A DNA stretch of 64,000 nt, taken from Escherichia coli. Lineage in GTDB: Bacteria; Pseudomonadota; Gammaproteobacteria; Enterobacterales; Enterobacteriaceae. The translations under genes were made by a program, and so were the position numbers. Under the pieces are notes generated by a model. That model worked only from the letters and a program-made list of their open reading frames with translations, was not told the DNA's origin and did not search any database. The stretch is from assembly GCF_003018255.1 (NCBI RefSeq), contig NZ_CP027440.1. One strand, 5' to 3'. This document shows, piece by piece, positions 68 to 56,213 of this stretch (its first letter is position 1; each line of letters opens with the position of its first letter).

Positions 68-1450
68 ATGGAAAAGAAACTGGGACTGAGCGCACTCACC
101 GCGCTGGTATTAAGCTCAATGCTGGGCGCGGGTGTTTTCAGTCTGCCGCAAAATATGGCGGCAGTTGCCAGCCCGGCAGCACTGCTCATCGGCTGGGGCA
201 TTACTGGCGCTGGCATTTTATTGCTGGCCTTTGCCATGCTGATCCTCACGCGCATTCGTCCCGAACTTGACGGCGGTATCTTTACCTATGCCCGCGAAGG
301 GTTTGGCGAGCTAATCGGCTTTTGTTCCGCATGGGGATACTGGCTGTGCGCAGTCATCGCCAACGTCTCCTATCTGGTGATCGTTTTTTCCGCGTTAAGC
401 TTTTTTACGGACACGCCGGAATTGCGCCTGTTTGGCGATGGTAATACATGGCAATCGATCCTCGGTGCATCGGCTTTATTGTGGATTGTTCACTTTTTGA
501 TCCTGCGCGGAGTGCAAACCGCTGCCAGCATTAACCTGGTGGCGACACTGGCAAAATTGTTGCCGCTGGGTCTGTTTGTTGTGCTGGCGATGATGATGTT
601 CAAACTGGATACCTTCAAGCTCGACTTCACCGGACTTGCACTTGGCGTACCCGTTTGGGAACAGGTGAAAAACACCATGCTGATCACCCTGTGGGTTTTC
701 ATTGGTGTGGAAGGTGCCGTGGTTGTTTCTGCGCGTGCGCGTAATAAACGTGATGTTGGCAAAGCGACACTGCTGGCGGTTCTCTCCGCTCTGGGCGTTT
801 ACTTGCTGGTAACGCTGCTTTCGCTGGGCGTGGTGGCACGTCCTGAACTGGCTGAAATTCGTAACCCGTCAATGGCCGGACTGATGGTGGAAATGATGGG
901 ACCGTGGGGCGAAATCATCATCGCTGCCGGTTTGATCGTTTCCGTTTGCGGTGCGTACTTAAGCTGGACCATCATGGCGGCAGAAGTTCCGTTCCTGGCA
1001 GCCACTCATAAAGCATTCCCGCGCATTTTTGCGCGCCAGAACGCACAAGCTGCGCCATCCGCTTCACTGTGGCTGACCAATATCTGCGTGCAAATTTGTC
1101 TGGTACTCATCTGGCTGACCGGTTCCGATTACAACACATTGCTGACCATCGCCTCAGAAATGATTCTGGTGCCCTATTTCCTGGTCGGCGCGTTCTTGCT
1201 GAAAATCGCAACCCGTCCACTGCATAAAGCGGTAGGTGTCGGTGCCTGCATTTATGGCTTATGGTTATTGTACGCCTCTGGTCCAATGCACTTGCTGTTA
1301 TCCGTTGTTCTGTATGCACCGGGGCTGCTGGTTTTCCTGTACGCGCGTAAAACGCATACCCATGATAATGTACTGAATCGTCAGGAAATGGTGCTGATTG
1401 GCATGCTGTTAATTGCCTCAGTTCCGGCGACCTGGATGCTGGTGGGATAA
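68..1450 (+). CDS. ydgI: APC-family amino acid transporter (arginine:ornithine antiporter-like), 460 aa from ATG at 68 (ORF track opens at 41)
   Basis: ORF 41..1450; multi-TM hydrophobic protein recognised as YdgI; position upstream of folM. Confidence 0.85.
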   Translation: MEKKLGLSALTALVLSSMLGAGVFSLPQNMAAVASPAALLIGWGITGAGILLLAFAMLILTRIRPELDGGIFTYAREGFGELIGFCSAWGYWLCAVIANVSYLVIVFSALSFFTDTPELRLFGDGNTWQSILGASALLWIVHFLILRGVQTAASINLVATLAKLLPLGLFVVLAMMMFKLDTFKLDFTGLALGVPVWEQVKNTMLITLWVFIGVEGAVVVSARARNKRDVGKATLLAVLSALGVYLLVTLLSLGVVARPELAEIRNPSMAGLMVEMMGPWGEIIIAAGLIVSVCGAYLSWTIMAAEVPFLAATHKAFPRIFARQNAQAAPSASLWLTNICVQICLVLIWLTGSDYNTLLTIASEMILVPYFLVGAFLLKIATRPLHKAVGVGACIYGLWLLYASGPMHLLLSVVLYAPGLLVFLYARKTHTHDNVLNRQEMVLIGMLLIASVPATWMLVG

Positions 1451-1486
1451 CGTTCATCCCATCGTTGGATAGCAAAGGAGATAACG

Positions 1487-2209
1487 ATGGGTAAAGCCCA
1501 ACCCTTGCCAATATTAATTACTGGCGGAGGTCGTCGCATCGGCCTCGCCCTCGCCTGGCATTTCATTAATCAAAAGCAACCGGTGATTATCAGCTATCGG
1601 ACGCACTATCCCGCCATTGATGGACTGATTAACGCAGGTGCGCAGTGTATTCAGGCTGATTTTTCGACCAACGACGGTGTGATGGCGTTTGCCGATGAAG
1701 TACTAAAAAGCACCCATGGCCTGCGTGCTATTTTGCATAACGCCAGCGCGTGGATGGCAGAAAAACCAGGTACACCACTGACCGACGTTCTGGCTTGCAT
1801 GATGCAGATCCACGTTAATACCCCATACCTACTCAACCATGCACTGGAAAGATTACTGCGTGGGCACGGACACGCCGCCAGCGATATCATTCACTTTACC
1901 GATTATGTGGTGGAGCGCGGTAGCGACAAACATATTGCCTATGCTGCAAGCAAAGCGGCACTGGATAATATGACCCGCTCGTTTGCCCGCAAGCTGGCAC
2001 CGGAAGTGAAAGTGAATTCTATTGCGCCATCGCTGATCCTGTTTAATGAGCATGATGATGCCGAATACCGACAACAGGCGCTGAATAAATCACTGATGAA
2101 AACCGCGCCTGGCGAGAAAGAAGTGATCGACCTGGTCGATTACTTACTTACCAGCTGCTTTGTCACCGGACGCAGTTTCCCTCTTGATGGCGGTCGTCAT
2201 CTGCGTTAA
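1487..2209 (+). CDS. folM: dihydromonapterin reductase / alternative dihydrofolate reductase (SDR family)
   Basis: 240 aa ORF; N-terminal GGGRRIG Rossmann motif; recognised as FolM. Confidence 0.9.
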   Translation: MGKAQPLPILITGGGRRIGLALAWHFINQKQPVIISYRTHYPAIDGLINAGAQCIQADFSTNDGVMAFADEVLKSTHGLRAILHNASAWMAEKPGTPLTDVLACMMQIHVNTPYLLNHALERLLRGHGHAASDIIHFTDYVVERGSDKHIAYAASKAALDNMTRSFARKLAPEVKVNSIAPSLILFNEHDDAEYRQQALNKSLMKTAPGEKEVIDLVDYLLTSCFVTGRSFPLDGGRHLR

Positions 2210-2541
2210 TGCAGCTTTATCCAGCATATAATCAACACCCATGCGCTTATCCCCCAGCATGCAACAGAACCAACAAAAGCGGCGGGCAAGCGCATCATTC
2301 CGGTGAAATACCACAGCGACGCCAGGTAAACAAAATAGGGAATAATCGACCACATGCTAAAAATGATGGTTGCGCGTAAGGCTTCAATGCCGCGTTCGCT
2401 GGCAACAATATAATGCGCGATGAGCGCAAAGGTCGGGAAAAGTGGTATCAGCCCGGCGATATAATAATTTTTCGTTTTTGCTAAAACACCAATCAACAGC
2501 ACTACCAGCGCACCGAGCGCGGCTTTGATTACCAGCCCCAT
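2206..2541 (-). CDS. ydgC: GlpM-family inner membrane protein
   Basis: 111 aa hydrophobic ORF convergent with folM, 4-nt stop overlap. Confidence 0.8.
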   Translation of the reverse strand: MGLVIKAALGALVVLLIGVLAKTKNYYIAGLIPLFPTFALIAHYIVASERGIEALRATIIFSMWSIIPYFVYLASLWYFTGMMRLPAAFVGSVACWGISAWVLIICWIKLH

Positions 2542-2669
2542 CTTTTTACCTTAACACTTCCATAACAAGTTATCAGTAGAATACCTGATGAAACCTTGTT
2601 TAGAAACGATTGATAGTAAGTAAAAACAGCGCGGTGTATTGTGACGTTTTTATATCTACCGTGAATGTT

Positions 2670-3389
2670 ATGAACACTATCGTATTTGTGGAAGATGATG
2701 CGGAAGTCGGTTCACTGATTGCCGCGTACCTGGCAAAACATGATATGCAGGTTACCGTGGAACCGCGCGGCGACCGGGCCGAAGAAACTATTCTGCAAGA
2801 AAATCCGGATTTGGTGTTACTCGACATCATGCTACCAGGCAAGGACGGCATGACCATTTGTCGTGATTTACGCGCAAAGTGGTCCGGACCGATTGTTCTT
2901 CTAACCTCTCTCGATAGCGATATGAACCACATCCTGGCACTGGAAATGGGTGCCTGCGACTATATTCTCAAAACGACGCCCCCTGCTGTTTTGTTAGCGC
3001 GTTTACGTTTGCATTTGCGTCAGAATGAGCAAGCCACACTGAGCAAAGGTCTTCAGGAAACGTCTCTGACTCCCTACAAAGCCCTGCATTTCGGCACGTT
3101 GACCATCGATCCTATCAACCGCGTAGTCACCCTGGCTAACACTGAAATCTCGCTCTCGACAGCTGATTTCGAATTATTGTGGGAATTAGCTACCCATGCT
3201 GGGCAAATCATGGACCGCGATGCATTGCTGAAAAATTTACGCGGCGTCAGTTATGACGGACTGGATCGTAGCGTGGACGTGGCTATTTCGCGGTTAAGAA
3301 AAAAACTGCTCGATAACGCCGCAGAACCTTATCGCATTAAAACTGTGCGTAACAAAGGCTATCTTTTTGCGCCTCATGCATGGGAATAA
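2670..3389 (+). CDS. rstA: two-component response regulator RstA (OmpR family), 239 aa from ATG at 2670
   Basis: ORF 2610..3389; receiver domain (VLLDIMLPGKDG) plus winged-helix C-terminus; start MNTIVFVEDD. Confidence 0.9.
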   Translation: MNTIVFVEDDAEVGSLIAAYLAKHDMQVTVEPRGDRAEETILQENPDLVLLDIMLPGKDGMTICRDLRAKWSGPIVLLTSLDSDMNHILALEMGACDYILKTTPPAVLLARLRLHLRQNEQATLSKGLQETSLTPYKALHFGTLTIDPINRVVTLANTEISLSTADFELLWELATHAGQIMDRDALLKNLRGVSYDGLDRSVDVAISRLRKKLLDNAAEPYRIKTVRNKGYLFAPHAWE

Positions 3390-26685: not shown

Positions 26686-29382
<2,697 letters not shown>

Positions 29383-49327: not shown

Positions 49328-52300
49328 ATGGCAGATAATCCAAACCTTTCATCGCCCCTGCCGGACGTGTTTTCACCGGCAACCCGCGACTGGTTTCTTC
49401 GCGCCTTTAAACAGCCGACCGCTGTCCAGTCGCAAACATGGCATGTGACGGCGCGAGGCGAACATGCGCTGGTGATTGCACCGACCGGCTCCGGGAAAAC
49501 GCTGGCAGCATTTCTCTACGCCCTCGATCAGCTCTTCCGCGAAGGCGGCGAAGATACCCGCGAGGCGCATAAACGTAAAACCTCACGCATCCTCTATATT
49601 TCACCGATAAAAGCCCTTGGCACCGACGTTCAGCGCAACTTGCAGATCCCGTTACAGGGTATTGCCGATGAACGGCGGCGGCGCGGCGAAACGGAAGTCA
49701 ATCTTCGCGTGGGGATCCGTACTGGCGATACGCCCGCACAGGAACGCAGCAAACTCACCCGTAATCCGCCGGATATTCTGATCACCACACCCGAATCACT
49801 CTATCTGATGCTGACCTCCCGCGCGCGCGAAACGCTACGCGGCGTCGAAACGGTAATTATTGATGAAGTCCACGCGGTAGCAGGCAGTAAACGTGGTGCG
49901 CATCTGGCGTTAAGTCTGGAGCGGCTCGATGCGCTGCTCCACACCTCAGCACAGCGAATTGGCCTTTCTGCCACTGTGCGTTCAGCCAGCGATGTGGCAG
50001 CATTTCTTGGTGGCGATCGCCCGGTTACGGTAGTCAACCCGCCCGCAATGCGCCATCCGCAGATACGGATTGTCGTACCGGTCGCCAATATGGATGATGT
50101 CTCATCGGTCGCCAGCGGCACCGGCGAAGACAGCCATGCCGGCCGGGAAGGCTCCATCTGGCCATATATTGAAACGGGTATCCTTGATGAAGTTTTGCGC
50201 CATCGCTCGACCATTGTCTTTACTAATTCACGCGGGCTGGCGGAAAAACTGACGGCACGATTAAATGAGCTTTACGCCGCACGCTTACAGCGTTCCCCAT
50301 CTATCGCCGTTGATGCGGCCCATTTCGAGTCGACCTCCGGCGCAACCTCTAACCGTGTACAAAGTAGCGACATTTTTATTGCCCGCTCACACCACGGCTC
50401 CGTCTCTAAAGAACAACGAGCAATCACCGAACAGGCGCTGAAATCGGGTGAATTACGCTGTGTGGTTGCAACCTCCAGTCTCGAACTGGGGATTGATATG
50501 GGCGCGGTGGATCTGGTGATTCAGGTGGCAACGCCGCTTTCTGTTGCCAGTGGGTTACAACGCATTGGACGTGCCGGACACCAGGTAGGTGGTATCTCCA
50601 AAGGGCTTTTTTTCCCCCGAACCAGGCGTGACTTAGTCGATTCCGCAGTCATTGTTGAGTGTATGTTCGCAGGCAGGCTGGAAAACCTGACACCACCGCA
50701 TAATCCACTCGACGTCCTTGCGCAGCAAACCGTTGCCGCCGCGGCGATGGATGCATTACAGGCAGACGAATGGTACTCCCGCGTACGCCGTGCCGCACCG
50801 TGGAAAGATCTGCCAAGACGTGTTTTTGACGTCACGCTGGATATGCTTTCCGGGCGCTATCCCTCTGGCGATTTTTCTGCTTTTCGACCAAAACTGGTCT
50901 GGAACAGGGAGACCGGGATATTGACCGCCCGACCTGGCGCTCAGCTGTTGGCGGTTACCAGCGGTGGCACCATTCCGGATCGTGGCATGTATAGCGTGTT
51001 ATTACCCGAAGGTGAAGAACAGGCCGGTTCGCGGCGGGTGGGTGAACTGGATGAGGAGATGGTATATGAGTCGCGGGTGAACGACATTATCACTCTCGGC
51101 GCTACCTCATGGCGGATCCAGCAAATCACCCGCGATCAGGTGATTGTGACTCCTGCTCCAGGTCGTTCTGCCCGCCTTCCCTTCTGGCGTGGTGAAGGTA
51201 ACGGACGTCCGGCAGAATTAGGCGAGATGATCGGCGATTTTCTCCATTTACTGGCGGATGGCGCGTTCTTTTCCGGGACTATTCCCCCGTGGTTGGCAGA
51301 AGAAAATACGATCGCCAATATTCAGGGGTTGATTGACGAGCAGCGCAACGCGACGGGCATCGTTCCGGGGAGTCGTCATCTGGTCCTCGAACGGTGCCGT
51401 GATGAAATTGGTGACTGGCGTATTATTTTGCACTCTCCCTATGGAAGACGGGTGCATGAACCCTGGGCGCTGGCGATTGCCGGGCGAATACATGCACTAT
51501 GGGGCGCTGACGCGTCTGTGGTTGCCAGTGATGACGGCATTGTTGCGCGCATTCCTGACACCGATGGTAAATTGCCTGATGCCGCGATTTTTTTGTTTGA
51601 ACCAGAAAAGTTGCTGCAAATTGTCCGCGAGGCGGTAGGCAGCTCGGCACTTTTCGCCGCCCGTTTTCGCGAATGCGCCGCGCGGACATTATTAATGCCG
51701 GGCCGCACGCCGGGCCATCGCACCCCGCTCTGGCAACAACGGCTGCGCGCCAGTCAGTTGCTGGAAATCGCTCAGGGATATCCAGATTTTCCGGTCATTC
51801 TCGAAACCCTACGCGAATGTCTGCAAGATGTTTATGATCTTCCCGCGCTGGAACGTTTGATGCGTCGCCTGAACGGTGGCGAAATTCAAATATCCGATGT
51901 AACGACCACTACGCCTTCGCCTTTCGCCGCCAGTTTATTGTTCGGCTATGTCGCGGAATTTATGTACCAGAGCGACGCCCCGCTGGCAGAGCGCCGGGCA
52001 TCCGTACTGTCGCTGGACAGCGAGTTACTGCGCAATCTACTCGGACAGGTCGATCCGGGGGAATTACTCGACCCACAGGTCATTCGCCAGGTGGAAGAAG
52101 AGTTGCAACGACTGGCTCCTGGCAGAAGAGCGAAAGGTGAAGAAGGATTGTTCGACCTGCTGCGCGAACTGGGGCCAATGACCGTTGAAGACCTGGCGCA
52201 ACGACATACAGGCAGCAGTGAAGAGATTGCGTCGTATCTGGAAAATCTTCTTGCAGTAAAACGAATCTTCCCGACCATGATTAGCGGGCAGGAGCGTCTT

Positions 52301-53944
52301 GCCTGTATGGATGATGCCGCCAGGCTGCGCGATGCTCTCGGCGTACGACTACCAGAGTCACTGCCAGAGATTTATTTGCACCGAGTCAGTTACCCGCTTC
52401 GCGACCTCTTTCTGCGCTATCTCCGGGCTCATGCTCTGGTCACGTCTGAACAACTGGCTCATGAGTTTAGTCTCGGTATTGCCATTGTCGAAGAGCAACT
52501 TCAGCAACTGCGCGAACAGGGGCTGGTGATGAATCTGCAACAAGACATCTGGGTGAGCGATGAAGTATTTCGTCGTCTGCGTTTGCGCTCGCTGCAAGCC
52601 GCCAGAGAAGCGACGCGTCCCGTTGCGGCCACGACCTATGCGCGATTGCTGCTGGAACGTCAGGGCGTATTACCCGCCACCGATGGTAGCCCGGCACTCT
52701 TTGCCTCAACATCGCCAGGCGTTTATGAGGGCGTGGATGGCGTCATGCGGGTGATCGAACAGCTTGCCGGAGTCGGTTTACCCGCCTCACTCTGGGAAAG
52801 CCAGATCCTGCCTGCCCGCGTACGCGACTATTCGCCAGAAATGCTCGATGAATTACTGGCAACCGGTGCGGTTATCTGGTCGGGGCAAAAAAAGCTGGGT
52901 GAAGATGACGGTCTGGTGGCACTGCATCTACAGGAATATGCCGCAGAATCGTTCACTCCCGCCGAAGCGAATCAGGCGAATAGTTCGGCGCTGCAGCAAG
53001 CGATAGTCACGGTTCTGGCTGACGGAGGAGCCTGGTTTGCACAACAAATCAGCCAACGGATACGCGATAAAATCGGCGAATCGGTTGATCCCTCAGCCAT
53101 GCAAGAGGCGTTATGGGCGCTGGTCTGGCAAGGCGTCATCACCAGCGACATTTGGGCACCGTTACGCGCCCTCACCCGCAGCAGTACCAACACACGCACC
53201 TCAACTCGCCGCAGTCACCGGGCTCGTCGTGGACGTCCTGTCTATGCGCAACCCGTCTCGCCGCTGGTATCTTACAACACACCAAAGCTTGCTGGACGCT
53301 GGTCGTTATTGCAGGTGGAGCCACTAAACGATACCGAAAGGATGCTGGCGCTGGCGGAAAATATGCTCGACCGCTACGGCATCATCAGTCGTCAGGCGGT
53401 GATAGCCGAAAATATCCCTGGCGGGTTTCCATCGATGCAAACGCTTTGTCGAAGTATGGAAGACTCCGGGCGAATTATGCGAGGTCGTTTTGTAGAAGGT
53501 CTGGGTGGCGCGCAATTCGCTGAACGTCTGACTATTGACCGATTGCGCGATCTGGCGACACAAGCCACGCAAACGCGCCACTATACACCAGTGGCGCTCT
53601 CTGCCAACGATCCGGCTAATGCATGGGGAAATCTTCTGCCCTGGCCTGCACATCCGGCAACGCTGATACCAACGCGTCGGGCGGGTGCGCTGGTGGTCGT
53701 TTCTGGCGGCAAATTGTTACTCTATCTGGCGCAAGGTGGCAAAAAAATGCTGGTCTGGCAGGAAAAAGAGGAATTACTCGCCCCAGAGATTTTCCACGCG
53801 CTGACTACCGCACTGCGTCGCGAACCACGGCTGCGCTTTACGCTAACAGAAGTGAATGACCTACCGGTCCGGCAAACGCCGATGTTTACGCTGCTGCGTG
53901 AGGCGGGATTTTCAAGTTCGCCACAAGGGCTGGATTGGGGATAG
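49328..53944 (+). CDS. lhr: large ATP-dependent helicase Lhr (superfamily 2)
   Basis: 1538 aa; Walker A (APTGSGKT), DEVH box, helicase C domain. Confidence 0.93.
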   Translation: MADNPNLSSPLPDVFSPATRDWFLRAFKQPTAVQSQTWHVTARGEHALVIAPTGSGKTLAAFLYALDQLFREGGEDTREAHKRKTSRILYISPIKALGTDVQRNLQIPLQGIADERRRRGETEVNLRVGIRTGDTPAQERSKLTRNPPDILITTPESLYLMLTSRARETLRGVETVIIDEVHAVAGSKRGAHLALSLERLDALLHTSAQRIGLSATVRSASDVAAFLGGDRPVTVVNPPAMRHPQIRIVVPVANMDDVSSVASGTGEDSHAGREGSIWPYIETGILDEVLRHRSTIVFTNSRGLAEKLTARLNELYAARLQRSPSIAVDAAHFESTSGATSNRVQSSDIFIARSHHGSVSKEQRAITEQALKSGELRCVVATSSLELGIDMGAVDLVIQVATPLSVASGLQRIGRAGHQVGGISKGLFFPRTRRDLVDSAVIVECMFAGRLENLTPPHNPLDVLAQQTVAAAAMDALQADEWYSRVRRAAPWKDLPRRVFDVTLDMLSGRYPSGDFSAFRPKLVWNRETGILTARPGAQLLAVTSGGTIPDRGMYSVLLPEGEEQAGSRRVGELDEEMVYESRVNDIITLGATSWRIQQITRDQVIVTPAPGRSARLPFWRGEGNGRPAELGEMIGDFLHLLADGAFFSGTIPPWLAEENTIANIQGLIDEQRNATGIVPGSRHLVLERCRDEIGDWRIILHSPYGRRVHEPWALAIAGRIHALWGADASVVASDDGIVARIPDTDGKLPDAAIFLFEPEKLLQIVREAVGSSALFAARFRECAARTLLMPGRTPGHRTPLWQQRLRASQLLEIAQGYPDFPVILETLRECLQDVYDLPALERLMRRLNGGEIQISDVTTTTPSPFAASLLFGYVAEFMYQSDAPLAERRASVLSLDSELLRNLLGQVDPGELLDPQVIRQVEEELQRLAPGRRAKGEEGLFDLLRELGPMTVEDLAQRHTGSSEEIASYLENLLAVKRIFPTMISGQERLACMDDAARLRDALGVRLPESLPEIYLHRVSYPLRDLFLRYLRAHALVTSEQLAHEFSLGIAIVEEQLQQLREQGLVMNLQQDIWVSDEVFRRLRLRSLQAAREATRPVAATTYARLLLERQGVLPATDGSPALFASTSPGVYEGVDGVMRVIEQLAGVGLPASLWESQILPARVRDYSPEMLDELLATGAVIWSGQKKLGEDDGLVALHLQEYAAESFTPAEANQANSSALQQAIVTVLADGGAWFAQQISQRIRDKIGESVDPSAMQEALWALVWQGVITSDIWAPLRALTRSSTNTRTSTRRSHRARRGRPVYAQPVSPLVSYNTPKLAGRWSLLQVEPLNDTERMLALAENMLDRYGIISRQAVIAENIPGGFPSMQTLCRSMEDSGRIMRGRFVEGLGGAQFAERLTIDRLRDLATQATQTRHYTPVALSANDPANAWGNLLPWPAHPATLIPTRRAGALVVVSGGKLLLYLAQGGKKMLVWQEKEELLAPEIFHALTTALRREPRLRFTLTEVNDLPVRQTPMFTLLREAGFSSSPQGLDWG

Positions 53945-53994: not shown

Positions 53995-54342
53995 TTATTC
54001 AGCGTCCGGCTCTTCAGACTTGTATTTAGCGGCAGTTTCTTTGATCAGCTGCTGCAGTTCGCCACGCTGATACATTTCGATCACGATATCACAACCGCCG
54101 ACCAGCTCGCCGTCAACCCACAGTTGCGGGAAGGTCGGCCAGTTAGCATATTTCGGCAGTTCCGCACGAATGTCCGGATTCTGCAGGATATCAACATAGG
54201 CAAAACGTTCGCCACATGCGGCAAGCGCCTGGACTGCCTGGGCAGAGAAACCGCAGCTCGGCAGTTTCGGTGAACCTTTCATGTACAGCAGGATCGGGTT
54301 TTCAGCAATCTGGCGTTGGATTTTTTCGATAGTGGTGCTCAT
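53995..54342 (-). CDS. grxD: monothiol glutaredoxin Grx4
   Basis: 115 aa; CGFS active-site motif (PKLPSCGFS). Confidence 0.93.
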   Translation of the reverse strand: MSTTIEKIQRQIAENPILLYMKGSPKLPSCGFSAQAVQALAACGERFAYVDILQNPDIRAELPKYANWPTFPQLWVDGELVGGCDIVIEMYQRGELQQLIKETAAKYKSEEPDAE

Positions 54343-54676
54343 TGTCTTGCTTCCTCAAACTTCTTTACGGCAGTAATCTGACATTGTAGCGGGTCAGTGC
54401 GGCATCGGAAAATAACATTTTCATCACGCTTTTGCTATTTTATCCCTTTGCTCTATTTGTTGCATTTCAAATATTCGTTTCTTCCCTGACGCACGGCAAA
54501 CTGGCGTATTTATAACCATTTTTAGCTTTCACTGCTGCATTTTTTTGCGCTCGCCAACGAAACGTATTTTTTAACAATAAAAGCTATTAACTTTCTCTTC
54601 TTCTATGCATTAGAATCATCAAGTTTTGTAAATCAGACGCAGGCATGATAGACCTGCCTTAACAGAGGGACGCTCA

Positions 54677-55504
54677 GTGGCGCGGATAAACCGTATTTCG
54701 ATCACGCTCTGTGCTTTACTTTTTACCACCCTGCCTTTAACGCCTATGGCCCATGCTTCAAAGCAAGCCAGGGAGAGTTCTGCTACTACTCATATCACCA
54801 AAAAAGCAGATAAAAAGAAAAGCACGGCAACCACCAAAAAGACCCAGAAAGCCAGCCAGAAAACAGCGAAAAAAGCCGCCAGTAAAAGTACGACCAAAAG
54901 CAAAACCGCTTCTTCCGTTAAAAAATCTTCCATTACCGCTTCTAAAAACGCCAAAACTCGCAGCAAACATGCCGTCAATAAAACGGCCTCAGCCAACTTT
55001 ACCGAAAAGTGTACCAAACGTAAGGGCTATAAATCGCATTGTGTGAAAGTCAAAAATGCCGCGTCAGGAACCCTTGCCGACGCGCACAAAGCGAAGGTGC
55101 AAAAAGCCACGAAAGTGGCAATGAATAAACTGATGCAACAAATTGGTAAGCCATATCGTTGGGGCGGCAGCTCACCGCGTACCGGTTTTGATTGCAGCGG
55201 CCTGGTTTATTACGCTTATAAAGATTTGGTGAAAATTCGTATTCCGCGTACGGCGAATGAAATGTATCACCTGCGTGATGCAGCACCTATCGAACGTAGT
55301 GAACTGAAAAACGGCGACCTGGTCTTCTTCCGTACTCAGGGACGCGGTACAGCCGATCATGTCGGCGTGTATGTCGGCAACGGCAAATTTATTCAGTCAC
55401 CGCGCACGGGCCAAGAAATTCAAATCACTTCTCTCAGTGAAGACTACTGGCAGCGCCACTATGTTGGCGCTCGTCGGGTAATGACCCCAAAAACACTTCG
55501 CTAA
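54677..55504 (+). CDS. mepH: NlpC/P60-family peptidoglycan DD-endopeptidase, GTG start
   Basis: Signal peptide, Lys/Thr/Ser-rich linker, C-terminal NlpC/P60 domain with catalytic Cys (FDCSGLV) and His. Confidence 0.88.
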   Translation: MARINRISITLCALLFTTLPLTPMAHASKQARESSATTHITKKADKKKSTATTKKTQKASQKTAKKAASKSTTKSKTASSVKKSSITASKNAKTRSKHAVNKTASANFTEKCTKRKGYKSHCVKVKNAASGTLADAHKAKVQKATKVAMNKLMQQIGKPYRWGGSSPRTGFDCSGLVYYAYKDLVKIRIPRTANEMYHLRDAAPIERSELKNGDLVFFRTQGRGTADHVGVYVGNGKFIQSPRTGQEIQITSLSEDYWQRHYVGARRVMTPKTLR

Positions 55505-55631
55505 AACTTTACCCTGTTGTTACGGCAACAGGGTAAGTTCATCTTTTGTCTCACCTTTTAATTTGCTACCCTATCCATACGCACAATAAGGCTATTGTAC
55601 GTATGCAAATTAATAATAAAGGAGAGTAGCA

Positions 55632-56213
55632 ATGTCATTCGAATTACCTGCACTACCATATGCTAAAGATGCTCTGGCACCGCACATTTCTGCGGAAACC
55701 ATCGAGTATCACTATGGCAAGCATCATCAGACTTATGTCACTAACCTGAACAACCTGATTAAAGGTACCGCGTTTGAAGGTAAATCACTGGAAGAGATTA
55801 TTCGCAGCTCTGAAGGTGGCGTATTCAACAACGCAGCTCAGGTCTGGAACCATACTTTCTACTGGAACTGCCTGGCACCGAACGCGGGTGGCGAACCGAC
55901 TGGAAAAGTCGCTGAAGCTATCGCCGCATCTTTTGGCAGCTTTGCCGATTTCAAAGCACAGTTTACTGATGCAGCAATCAAAAACTTTGGTTCTGGCTGG
56001 ACCTGGCTGGTGAAAAACAGCGATGGCAAACTGGCTATCGTTTCAACCTCTAACGCGGGTACTCCGCTGACCACCGATGCGACTCCGCTGCTGACCGTTG
56101 ATGTCTGGGAACACGCTTATTACATCGACTATCGCAATGCACGTCCTGGCTATCTGGAGCACTTCTGGGCGCTGGTGAACTGGGAATTCGTAGCGAAAAA
56201 TCTCGCTGCATAA
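55632..56213 (+). CDS. sodB: Fe superoxide dismutase
   Basis: 193 aa; recognised SodB ([36 protein letters not shown]...). Confidence 0.96.

Follow-up and report, generated by a model that had tools for sequence, protein, structure and literature searches.

The window, by which we mean the whole 64-kb stretch of E. coli DNA analyzed here, contains the gene order lhr-grxD-mepH-sodB-ydhP, with lhr upstream and ydhP downstream, which is the arrangement of b1653-b1657 in K-12. The open reading frame in the middle is 100% identical at the nucleotide level to mepH of E. coli 2017.09.02CC (NZ_AP025214.2), whose product WP_000101182.1 is annotated as peptidoglycan DD-endopeptidase MepH. It uses the same start codon as K-12 b1655, and the match is annotated as mepH in 5,425 of 5,426 complete E. 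coli genomes. The name mepH, given to the gene by an earlier sequence-only reading of this DNA, is confirmed by the identity to the RefSeq protein and by the synteny with K-12. The gene, its neighbors and its parts are as follows.

53995-54342, minus strand: grxD, neighbor of mepH.
54677-55504, plus strand: mepH (ydhO) coding sequence in its long-allele form, GTG start, 275 aa plus stop (open reading frame list, identity, Pfam).
54677-54757, plus strand: signal peptide, residues 1-27 (MARINRISITLCALLFTTLPLTPMAHA, then S), read from the sequence; mean cross-genus identity 81%.
54758-55000, plus strand: low-complexity polycationic tail, residues 28-108 (composition, AlphaFold2, charge-hydropathy, alignment).
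54844-54855, plus strand: 12-nt segment CCAGAAAGCCAG (QKAS, residues 57-60), present in the window and missing from K-12 and B (protein and DNA alignment).
54905-54943, plus strand: direct repeats ACCGCTTCT (54905-54913 and 54935-54943), which bound a 30-nt in-frame deletion allele (261 aa; P0010, locus L026 against K-12).
54920-54925, plus strand: A6 run in the tail, A7 in a frameshift allele (L005, encoding P0035; loci L005-L007) from draft and read-archive assemblies.
54998-55054, plus strand: Cys-X9-Cys beta-hairpin, residues 108-126 (invariant C112 and C122; AlphaFold2 strands 108-113 and 121-126).
55073-55141, plus strand: long helix into the catalytic core, residues 133-155 (AlphaFold2 secondary structure; 68% cross-genus identity over residues 109-156).
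55145-55477, plus strand: NlpC/P60 catalytic domain, residues 157-267 (Pfam PF00877; 91% cross-genus identity, 0 gapped columns).
55632-56213, plus strand: sodB, neighbor of mepH.

The surroundings of the gene differ among strains (loci L001, L012, L014, L015, L018-L020). In the window lhr (49328-53944, plus strand) is intact and codes for 1538 aa; in 2017.09.02CC, a strain with a grxD-sodB region identical to that of the window, it is annotated as frameshifted. In the B2-type strains ST131 4993, 95-3322, PMV-1, PU-1, GN06758 and BEN2908 only a remnant of about 126 nt of lhr lies beside rnt. Matches to mepH in the plasmid collection (H141-H144) were rejected as plasmid-borne copies: the records of 4.8-4.9 Mb are chromosomes filed as plasmids, and the one remaining record, NZ_CP090612.1 of 420 kb, has a mepH of chromosomal type.

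The C-terminal part of the protein is a well defined enzyme. The NLPC_P60 profile PF00877 matches with 125.8 bits (cut-off 23, E = 8e-37) over profile positions 1-105 of 105. Across 42 sequences neither C173 (motif GFDCSG) nor H228 (ADHVG) varies, and by analogy with MepS we take them to be catalytic residues. The relatives of this domain in the PDB include MepS 2K1G, 7V6S and 8XUD, while the PDB search returned no solved chain covering MepH residues 28-105. For K-12 MepH, DD-endopeptidase activity on 4-3 cross-links is given in literature cited in PMC11211486. A mepS mepM double mutant depends on MepH (PMC8996183). The K-12 protein (MepH/YdhO, b1655, NP_416172.1, 271 aa) has the same locus, start codon, signal peptide and catalytic domain as the protein of the window. 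Two other Pfam matches, Presenilin (15.7 bits, cut-off 34.3) and Peptidase_C92 (19.2, cut-off 27), are below threshold and were taken as noise of low-complexity or related-fold origin.

What lies between the signal peptide and this domain? The sequence-only reading had described here a Lys/Thr/Ser-rich linker of about 80 residues at 54760-55010, which corresponds to residues 28-112, and had quoted from it the string KKADKKKSTATTKKTQKASQKTAKKAASKSTTKSKTASS, that is, residues 42-80. The position is right in general, but the tail does not extend to the Pfam domain: a conserved stretch of about 48 residues (108-155), made of the hairpin and the helix, comes before it. Cysteines C112 and C122, conserved throughout the alignment, likely form a disulfide in the hairpin.

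The word linker is less suitable. On the N-terminal side of the tail there is only a cleavable Sec signal peptide with no folded or anchored part, and the Pfam search gave no domain N-terminal of the tail. Inspection of the sequence reveals a basic n-region (MARINR, with R3 and R6), a hydrophobic core and the cleavage motif AHA/S. The same inspection found no lipobox in MepH, as C12 is preceded by I-T-L and the n-region is followed by only five hydrophobic residues. MepH has been classed as a soluble periplasmic enzyme (PMC7516022). Since the signal peptide is cleaved and the lipobox is absent, the tail should be N-terminally free in the mature protein rather than a linker, and any envelope tethering by it, of the kind proposed in the earlier reading, could only be non-covalent.

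The composition of the tail is extreme. Residues 29-111 (83 aa) contain 26.5% K, 18% T, 17% A and 17% S, in sum 78% K/T/S/A; their Shannon entropy is 2.97 bits, their net charge is +21, and just five residues are hydrophobic. The remainder of MepH has 30% K/T/S/A and an entropy of 4.14. For the background, every stop-free stretch of 200 aa or more in the 64-kb window was read in windows of 83 aa, 15,558 in number. In these K/T/S/A averages 25.7% (sd 7%) and entropy 3.9 bits; only windows of mepH itself reach 78%. The K/T/S/A-rich stretch of about 80 residues noticed earlier is therefore real and stands far above this background. Just one further protein stretch of the window has strongly reduced entropy, namely the C-terminal end of an RsxC/RnfC-like open reading frame (27256-29382, plus strand, 708 aa), which consists of about five tandem units of ~28 aa; their copy number is probably variable, and we take the K-12 RsxC to be longer (740 aa).

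At the DNA level the tail is 43% A and holds six A5-A6 runs, the longest homopolymer being A6. A 101-nt query from the tail (54800-54900) was fully masked by the low-complexity filter of BLAST and thus gave no match in 5,426 E. coli genomes, so a 221-nt query with unmasked flanks was used in its place.

Disorder prediction, which the earlier reading had proposed as a check, agrees with the composition. AlphaFold2 gives residues 10-106 a pLDDT below 50, with no helix or strand, although this is weaker evidence of disorder than it looks, because the whole model, built on 42 homologues, is mediocre (mean pLDDT 53.8, and only 60-72 in the catalytic core). The charge-hydropathy test also puts the tail on the disordered side, with <H> 0.36 against a boundary of 0.51. 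Residues 28-108 of MepH are thus predicted to be intrinsically disordered.

How much of this region has been retained along the different lineages? We compared the window protein with 41 Enterobacteriaceae homologues region by region. The mean identity is 81% in the signal peptide (0 of 27 columns gapped), 40% in the tail (minimum 23%; 66 of 105 columns gapped), 68% in the hairpin and helix (8 of 50 columns) and 91% in the catalytic domain (0 of 119 columns). Over 79 homologues, K/T/S/A in the tail averages 73% and net charge +19 (range +9 to +26), and tail length is 70-95 aa across genera, rare E. coli deletion alleles excepted. A few tail lysines, K42, K47, K48, K66 and K90, are nearly invariant. 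Against E. albertii, dN/dS is 0.18 for the tail and 0.02 for the catalytic domain; by this ratio, selection on the tail is relaxed yet purifying. Constraint on the tail among these homologues acts on composition, charge and approximate length and leaves the sequence free to change, a pattern typical of disordered regions selected for composition and not for sequence.

The synonymous divergence from E. albertii (L028) is itself uneven: dS is 0.74 in the catalytic domain, but only 0.27 for the tail and 0 for the signal peptide. A recombination mosaic could be behind the low values at the 5′ end, or else the A-rich tail may be constrained in its codons or composition.

The tail differs in length within E. 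coli as well. In the window mepH has 828 nt (275 aa), and in K-12 MG1655 and the B strain 816 nt (271 aa). The difference is the 12-nt segment at 54844-54855, bounded by exact direct repeats CCAGAAA at 54844-54850 and 54856-54862, which leave a 7-nt microhomology at the junction. Apart from this 4-residue indel, a single substitution separates the window and K-12 proteins, N107 of the window being S in K-12 and B; besides the 12-nt indel, the genes differ at 14 nucleotides. The question of reference length, which the sequence-only reading had left aside, is answered in this way: the tail here is four residues longer than in K-12. The 12-nt unit amounts to two imperfect copies sharing 7 nt, not to a head-to-tail array. 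Tandem Repeats Finder reported no array with a score of 30 or more over 54600-55550, and a generic repeat finder gave only two-copy families at chance level, the CCAGAAA repeat surfacing solely through the allele alignment.

Both forms are common. With the 221-nt query, 1,878 genomes fell into the band of at least 95% identity, where 21 of 21 sampled rows had the 221-nt long form, and 3,546 into the 90-95% band, where 38 of 38 had the 209-nt short form. This puts the long form at ~35% and the short form at ~65% of 5,424 complete E. coli genomes, the split being one of identity bands (221-nt query against 5,426 complete genomes) with 59 sampled rows and not a census of lengths. The suspected length polymorphism thus exists: the 275- and 271-aa forms are both widespread, rarer deletions occur besides them, and length varies between genera; an invariant tail, which would have spoken against the earlier description, is not what the allele alignment displays. 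The 4-residue difference itself is probably nearly neutral. Public databases already contain the mepH gene, its protein and both length alleles with standard annotation, and the variable tail is ordinary biology.

Which length is the older one? MepH of E. albertii is likewise 275 aa long, and its alignment to the window gene contains no gap; the QKAS site is also occupied by residues in Citrobacter, Salmonella and further genera. From this we infer that the 275-aa length is ancestral and the short K-12 form a derived deletion. Between the two species compared at the DNA level, the perfect 7-nt repeat occurs in E. coli only, the first repeat copy in E. albertii being CAATAAA.

The deletion may have happened more than once. 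A local neighbor-joining tree of 18 hand-picked haplotypes of the 2.2-kb grxD-sodB region requires at least three changes at this site. The short allele occurs on at least three backgrounds, B2-type (BEN2908, PMV-1, PU-1, GN06758), K-12-type and O157-type, each of which has close relatives with the long allele, and within a haplotype group the allele state is stable. At the informative SNPs closest to the site on either side (54787, 54970/54971 and 54996) these three short haplotypes are distinct from each other, which points either to independent deletions or to gene-conversion tracts shorter than ~180 nt, two histories that look alike in a sample of 18 such haplotypes.

One protein search and look-ups of exact proteins, which also supplied the outgroup, yielded rarer alleles. 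E. coli MepH proteins of 261, 244, 241, 239 and 210 aa have an in-frame deletion within the tail or starting in it, and this is their sole large difference from the common alleles. When the five were traced to DNA, 30, 81, 102, 96 and 183 nt were missing, with microhomology of 9, 3, 1, 5 and 5 nt, respectively. Such large deletions are singletons or near-singletons. Those lacking 27-34 tail residues keep an intact reading frame.

Some genomes have lost the gene. ST2747 (NZ_CP007394.1, L022) has a clean 226-nt deletion equivalent to 54652-54877 of the window. Its mepH is left with no ribosome-binding site or start codon and has also lost the signal peptide and the tail's first half, the right breakpoint being inside the tail; in TUM2805 (L003) only the last 114 nt of mepH remain. 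These two cases indicate natural loss of mepH in some complete genomes. Together with the intact-frame alleles lacking 27-34 tail residues, they imply that any function of the tail is dispensable in at least some backgrounds.

Frameshifts in the tail are a separate matter. The P0035 cluster, with 101 member sequences, begins in the +1 frame and later returns to that of mepH, and its DNA has A7 in place of the A6 run at 54920-54925. A7 would truncate the true MepH, and gene callers instead emit a 246-aa 'putative exported hydrolase' from a +1-frame ATG at 54753. The allele had no 100% match in 5,426 complete genomes: the best 40 matches listed were each 99.9% identical and 816 nt long, and any 100% match would have come before them in the ranking. 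It may represent a small lineage or a homopolymer sequencing error. Three other proteins (P0007, P0013 and P0067) have double frameshifts in the A runs of the tail and look like sequencing errors. Annotators should be cautious here, as the A runs of the tail yield frameshifted gene calls that start in the wrong frame.

Taken jointly, the data suggest that mature periplasmic MepH probably carries a disordered, basic, K/T/S/A-rich tail which is constrained in composition, prone to indels, and acts as a polycation binding the envelope. Short in-frame pieces are gained and lost in the A-rich, repeat-laden DNA of the tail, probably by slippage between short direct repeats. Slippage is proposed because of the microhomology at the deletions, namely 7 nt at the common one and 9, 5, 5, 3 and 1 nt at the rare ones. 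At the protein level, the tail as a flexible polycation would make weak, multivalent, sequence-independent and salt-sensitive contacts with anionic peptidoglycan or other parts of the envelope. Through such contacts a hydrolase that otherwise diffuses freely could reach a higher local concentration on its substrate and dwell there longer. The electrostatic association of the tail with peptidoglycan or envelope is deduced from charge and composition; a search of the literature found no study of the binding, localization or truncation of the MepH tail.

The main rival to the electrostatic reading is control by NlpI and Prc, where the tail would be a regulatory element, an NlpI-binding or Prc entry site that sets MepH half-life, and its length would tune turnover. 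In nlpI and prc mutants the level of MepH does go up 3.5- to 5-fold, and its degradation depends on NlpI/Prc (PMC8996183). In MepS a disordered N-terminus of 37 residues is needed for NlpI binding and folds upon binding (PMC11211486), and MepH is predicted to have a disordered N-terminus too. However, MepS-NlpI binding relies on the conserved hydrophobic residues L24 and F31 (PMC11211486), whereas the MepH tail has 5 hydrophobic residues of 83 and no conserved hydrophobic motif. In PDB alignments the similarity of MepH to MepS begins only at MepH residue ~149, and the positional counterpart of the MepS element would be the conserved hairpin plus helix (108-155) rather than the K/T/S/A tail; the literature search found no direct data on MepH-NlpI binding. 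We therefore regard this explanation as unlikely, though a serious one. The same low probability may be given to the proposal that the tail is a functionless spacer whose composition comes from mutational drift of A-rich DNA and whose length changes are neutral noise. Very low sequence conservation, frequent indels, large natural in-frame deletions, two common lengths (271 and 275 aa) and a gene that is dispensable and lost in some strains all fit a spacer. Drift does not easily explain, however, a tail dN/dS well under 1 (0.18), five nearly invariant lysines, and the retention of 73% K/T/S/A, a charge of +9 to +26 and 70-95 aa at a tail identity of only 23-40%, and the large deletions are singletons or near-singletons instead of established alleles. 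On these comparisons a purely neutral spacer is disfavored.

Two further ideas are prompted by the unusual DNA. Six A5-A6 runs, an A7 frameshift allele in many draft and read-archive assemblies and a 12-nt deletion that appears recurrent might suggest a contingency locus, in which A runs or the 12-nt repeat switch MepH at high frequency by phase variation. Yet the runs are only 5-6 nt long and Tandem Repeats Finder finds no array; with just two imperfect 12-nt copies, one deletion is irreversible; and the A7 allele has no 100% match in 5,426 complete genomes while each haplotype group keeps its allele state, so that phase variation seems very improbable. Open reading frames of 97 aa (plus strand), 70 aa (minus) and 75 aa (minus) overlap 54753-55046, and the database proteins P0013, P0035, P0043 and P0050, among them those named 'putative exported hydrolase', contain the peptide KKQIKRKARQPPKRP, as if a real gene were read in another frame. 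This we find hardly credible: 1-nt indels in the A runs lead gene callers to begin in the +1 frame and return to that of mepH afterwards, low-complexity DNA rich in A and C is expected to have alternative frames with few stops, and across genera the mepH frame alone links a signal peptide and a catalytic domain that are both conserved. The reading we prefer remains the composition-constrained polycationic tail.

Comparable regions are known in other cell-wall proteins. MepS (Spr) is the nearest case, a paralogous NlpC/P60 endopeptidase with a disordered N-terminus before the catalytic core and with NlpI/Prc control common to both enzymes. But the MepS region is short (37 residues), lipid-anchored and not polycationic, and it acts through L24 and F31 (PMC11211486), whereas the MepH tail has about 80 residues, a free N-terminus, a charge of +21 and almost no hydrophobic residues. 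PBP1 and RsgI of B. subtilis also have polar, charged and compositionally biased disordered regions, attached to cell-wall enzymes or sensors, with composition kept and sequence poorly conserved (PMC9732909). For these, non-specific multivalent contacts with peptidoglycan have been proposed, and scrambling is tolerated (PMC9732909). They differ in organism, envelope, host proteins and C-terminal position, and their function was demonstrated by deletion, swap and scramble (PMC9732909), while the MepH tail is known from sequence and a model.

Listeria p60 (Iap) and B. subtilis LytE share with MepH an S/T/N/K-rich low-complexity stretch upstream of the NlpC/P60 domain. MepH residues ~29-150 align to p60 (PRK13914, NCBIfam) and to LytE (8i2e, PDB), and these alignments are driven by composition. 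The Thr-Asn repeat of Listeria p60 varies in length between strains. However, in p60 and LytE the linkers connect the catalytic domain with folded wall-binding domains of the LysM or SH3 type, and MepH has neither such a domain by Pfam nor a true tandem repeat.

A more ambitious version can be formulated, according to which the tail is a composition-encoded module, for targeting soluble MepH to anionic or loosened peptidoglycan, as with the disordered regions of B. subtilis PBP1 and RsgI, or for gating NlpI-Prc turnover, and the 12-nt deletion arose at least three times and reached ~65% by selection for a shorter tail. We consider it doubtful. If it were true, the length alleles would represent parallel adaptive tuning of a cell-wall hydrolase instead of neutral slippage.

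For the biology of MepH, the polycationic reading, which we hold to be probable, concerns a large part of the enzyme: the polycationic tail with its conserved composition makes up about a third of mature MepH. In MepS the disordered N-terminus, the counterpart of this tail region, proved to be the docking site of NlpI (PMC11211486).
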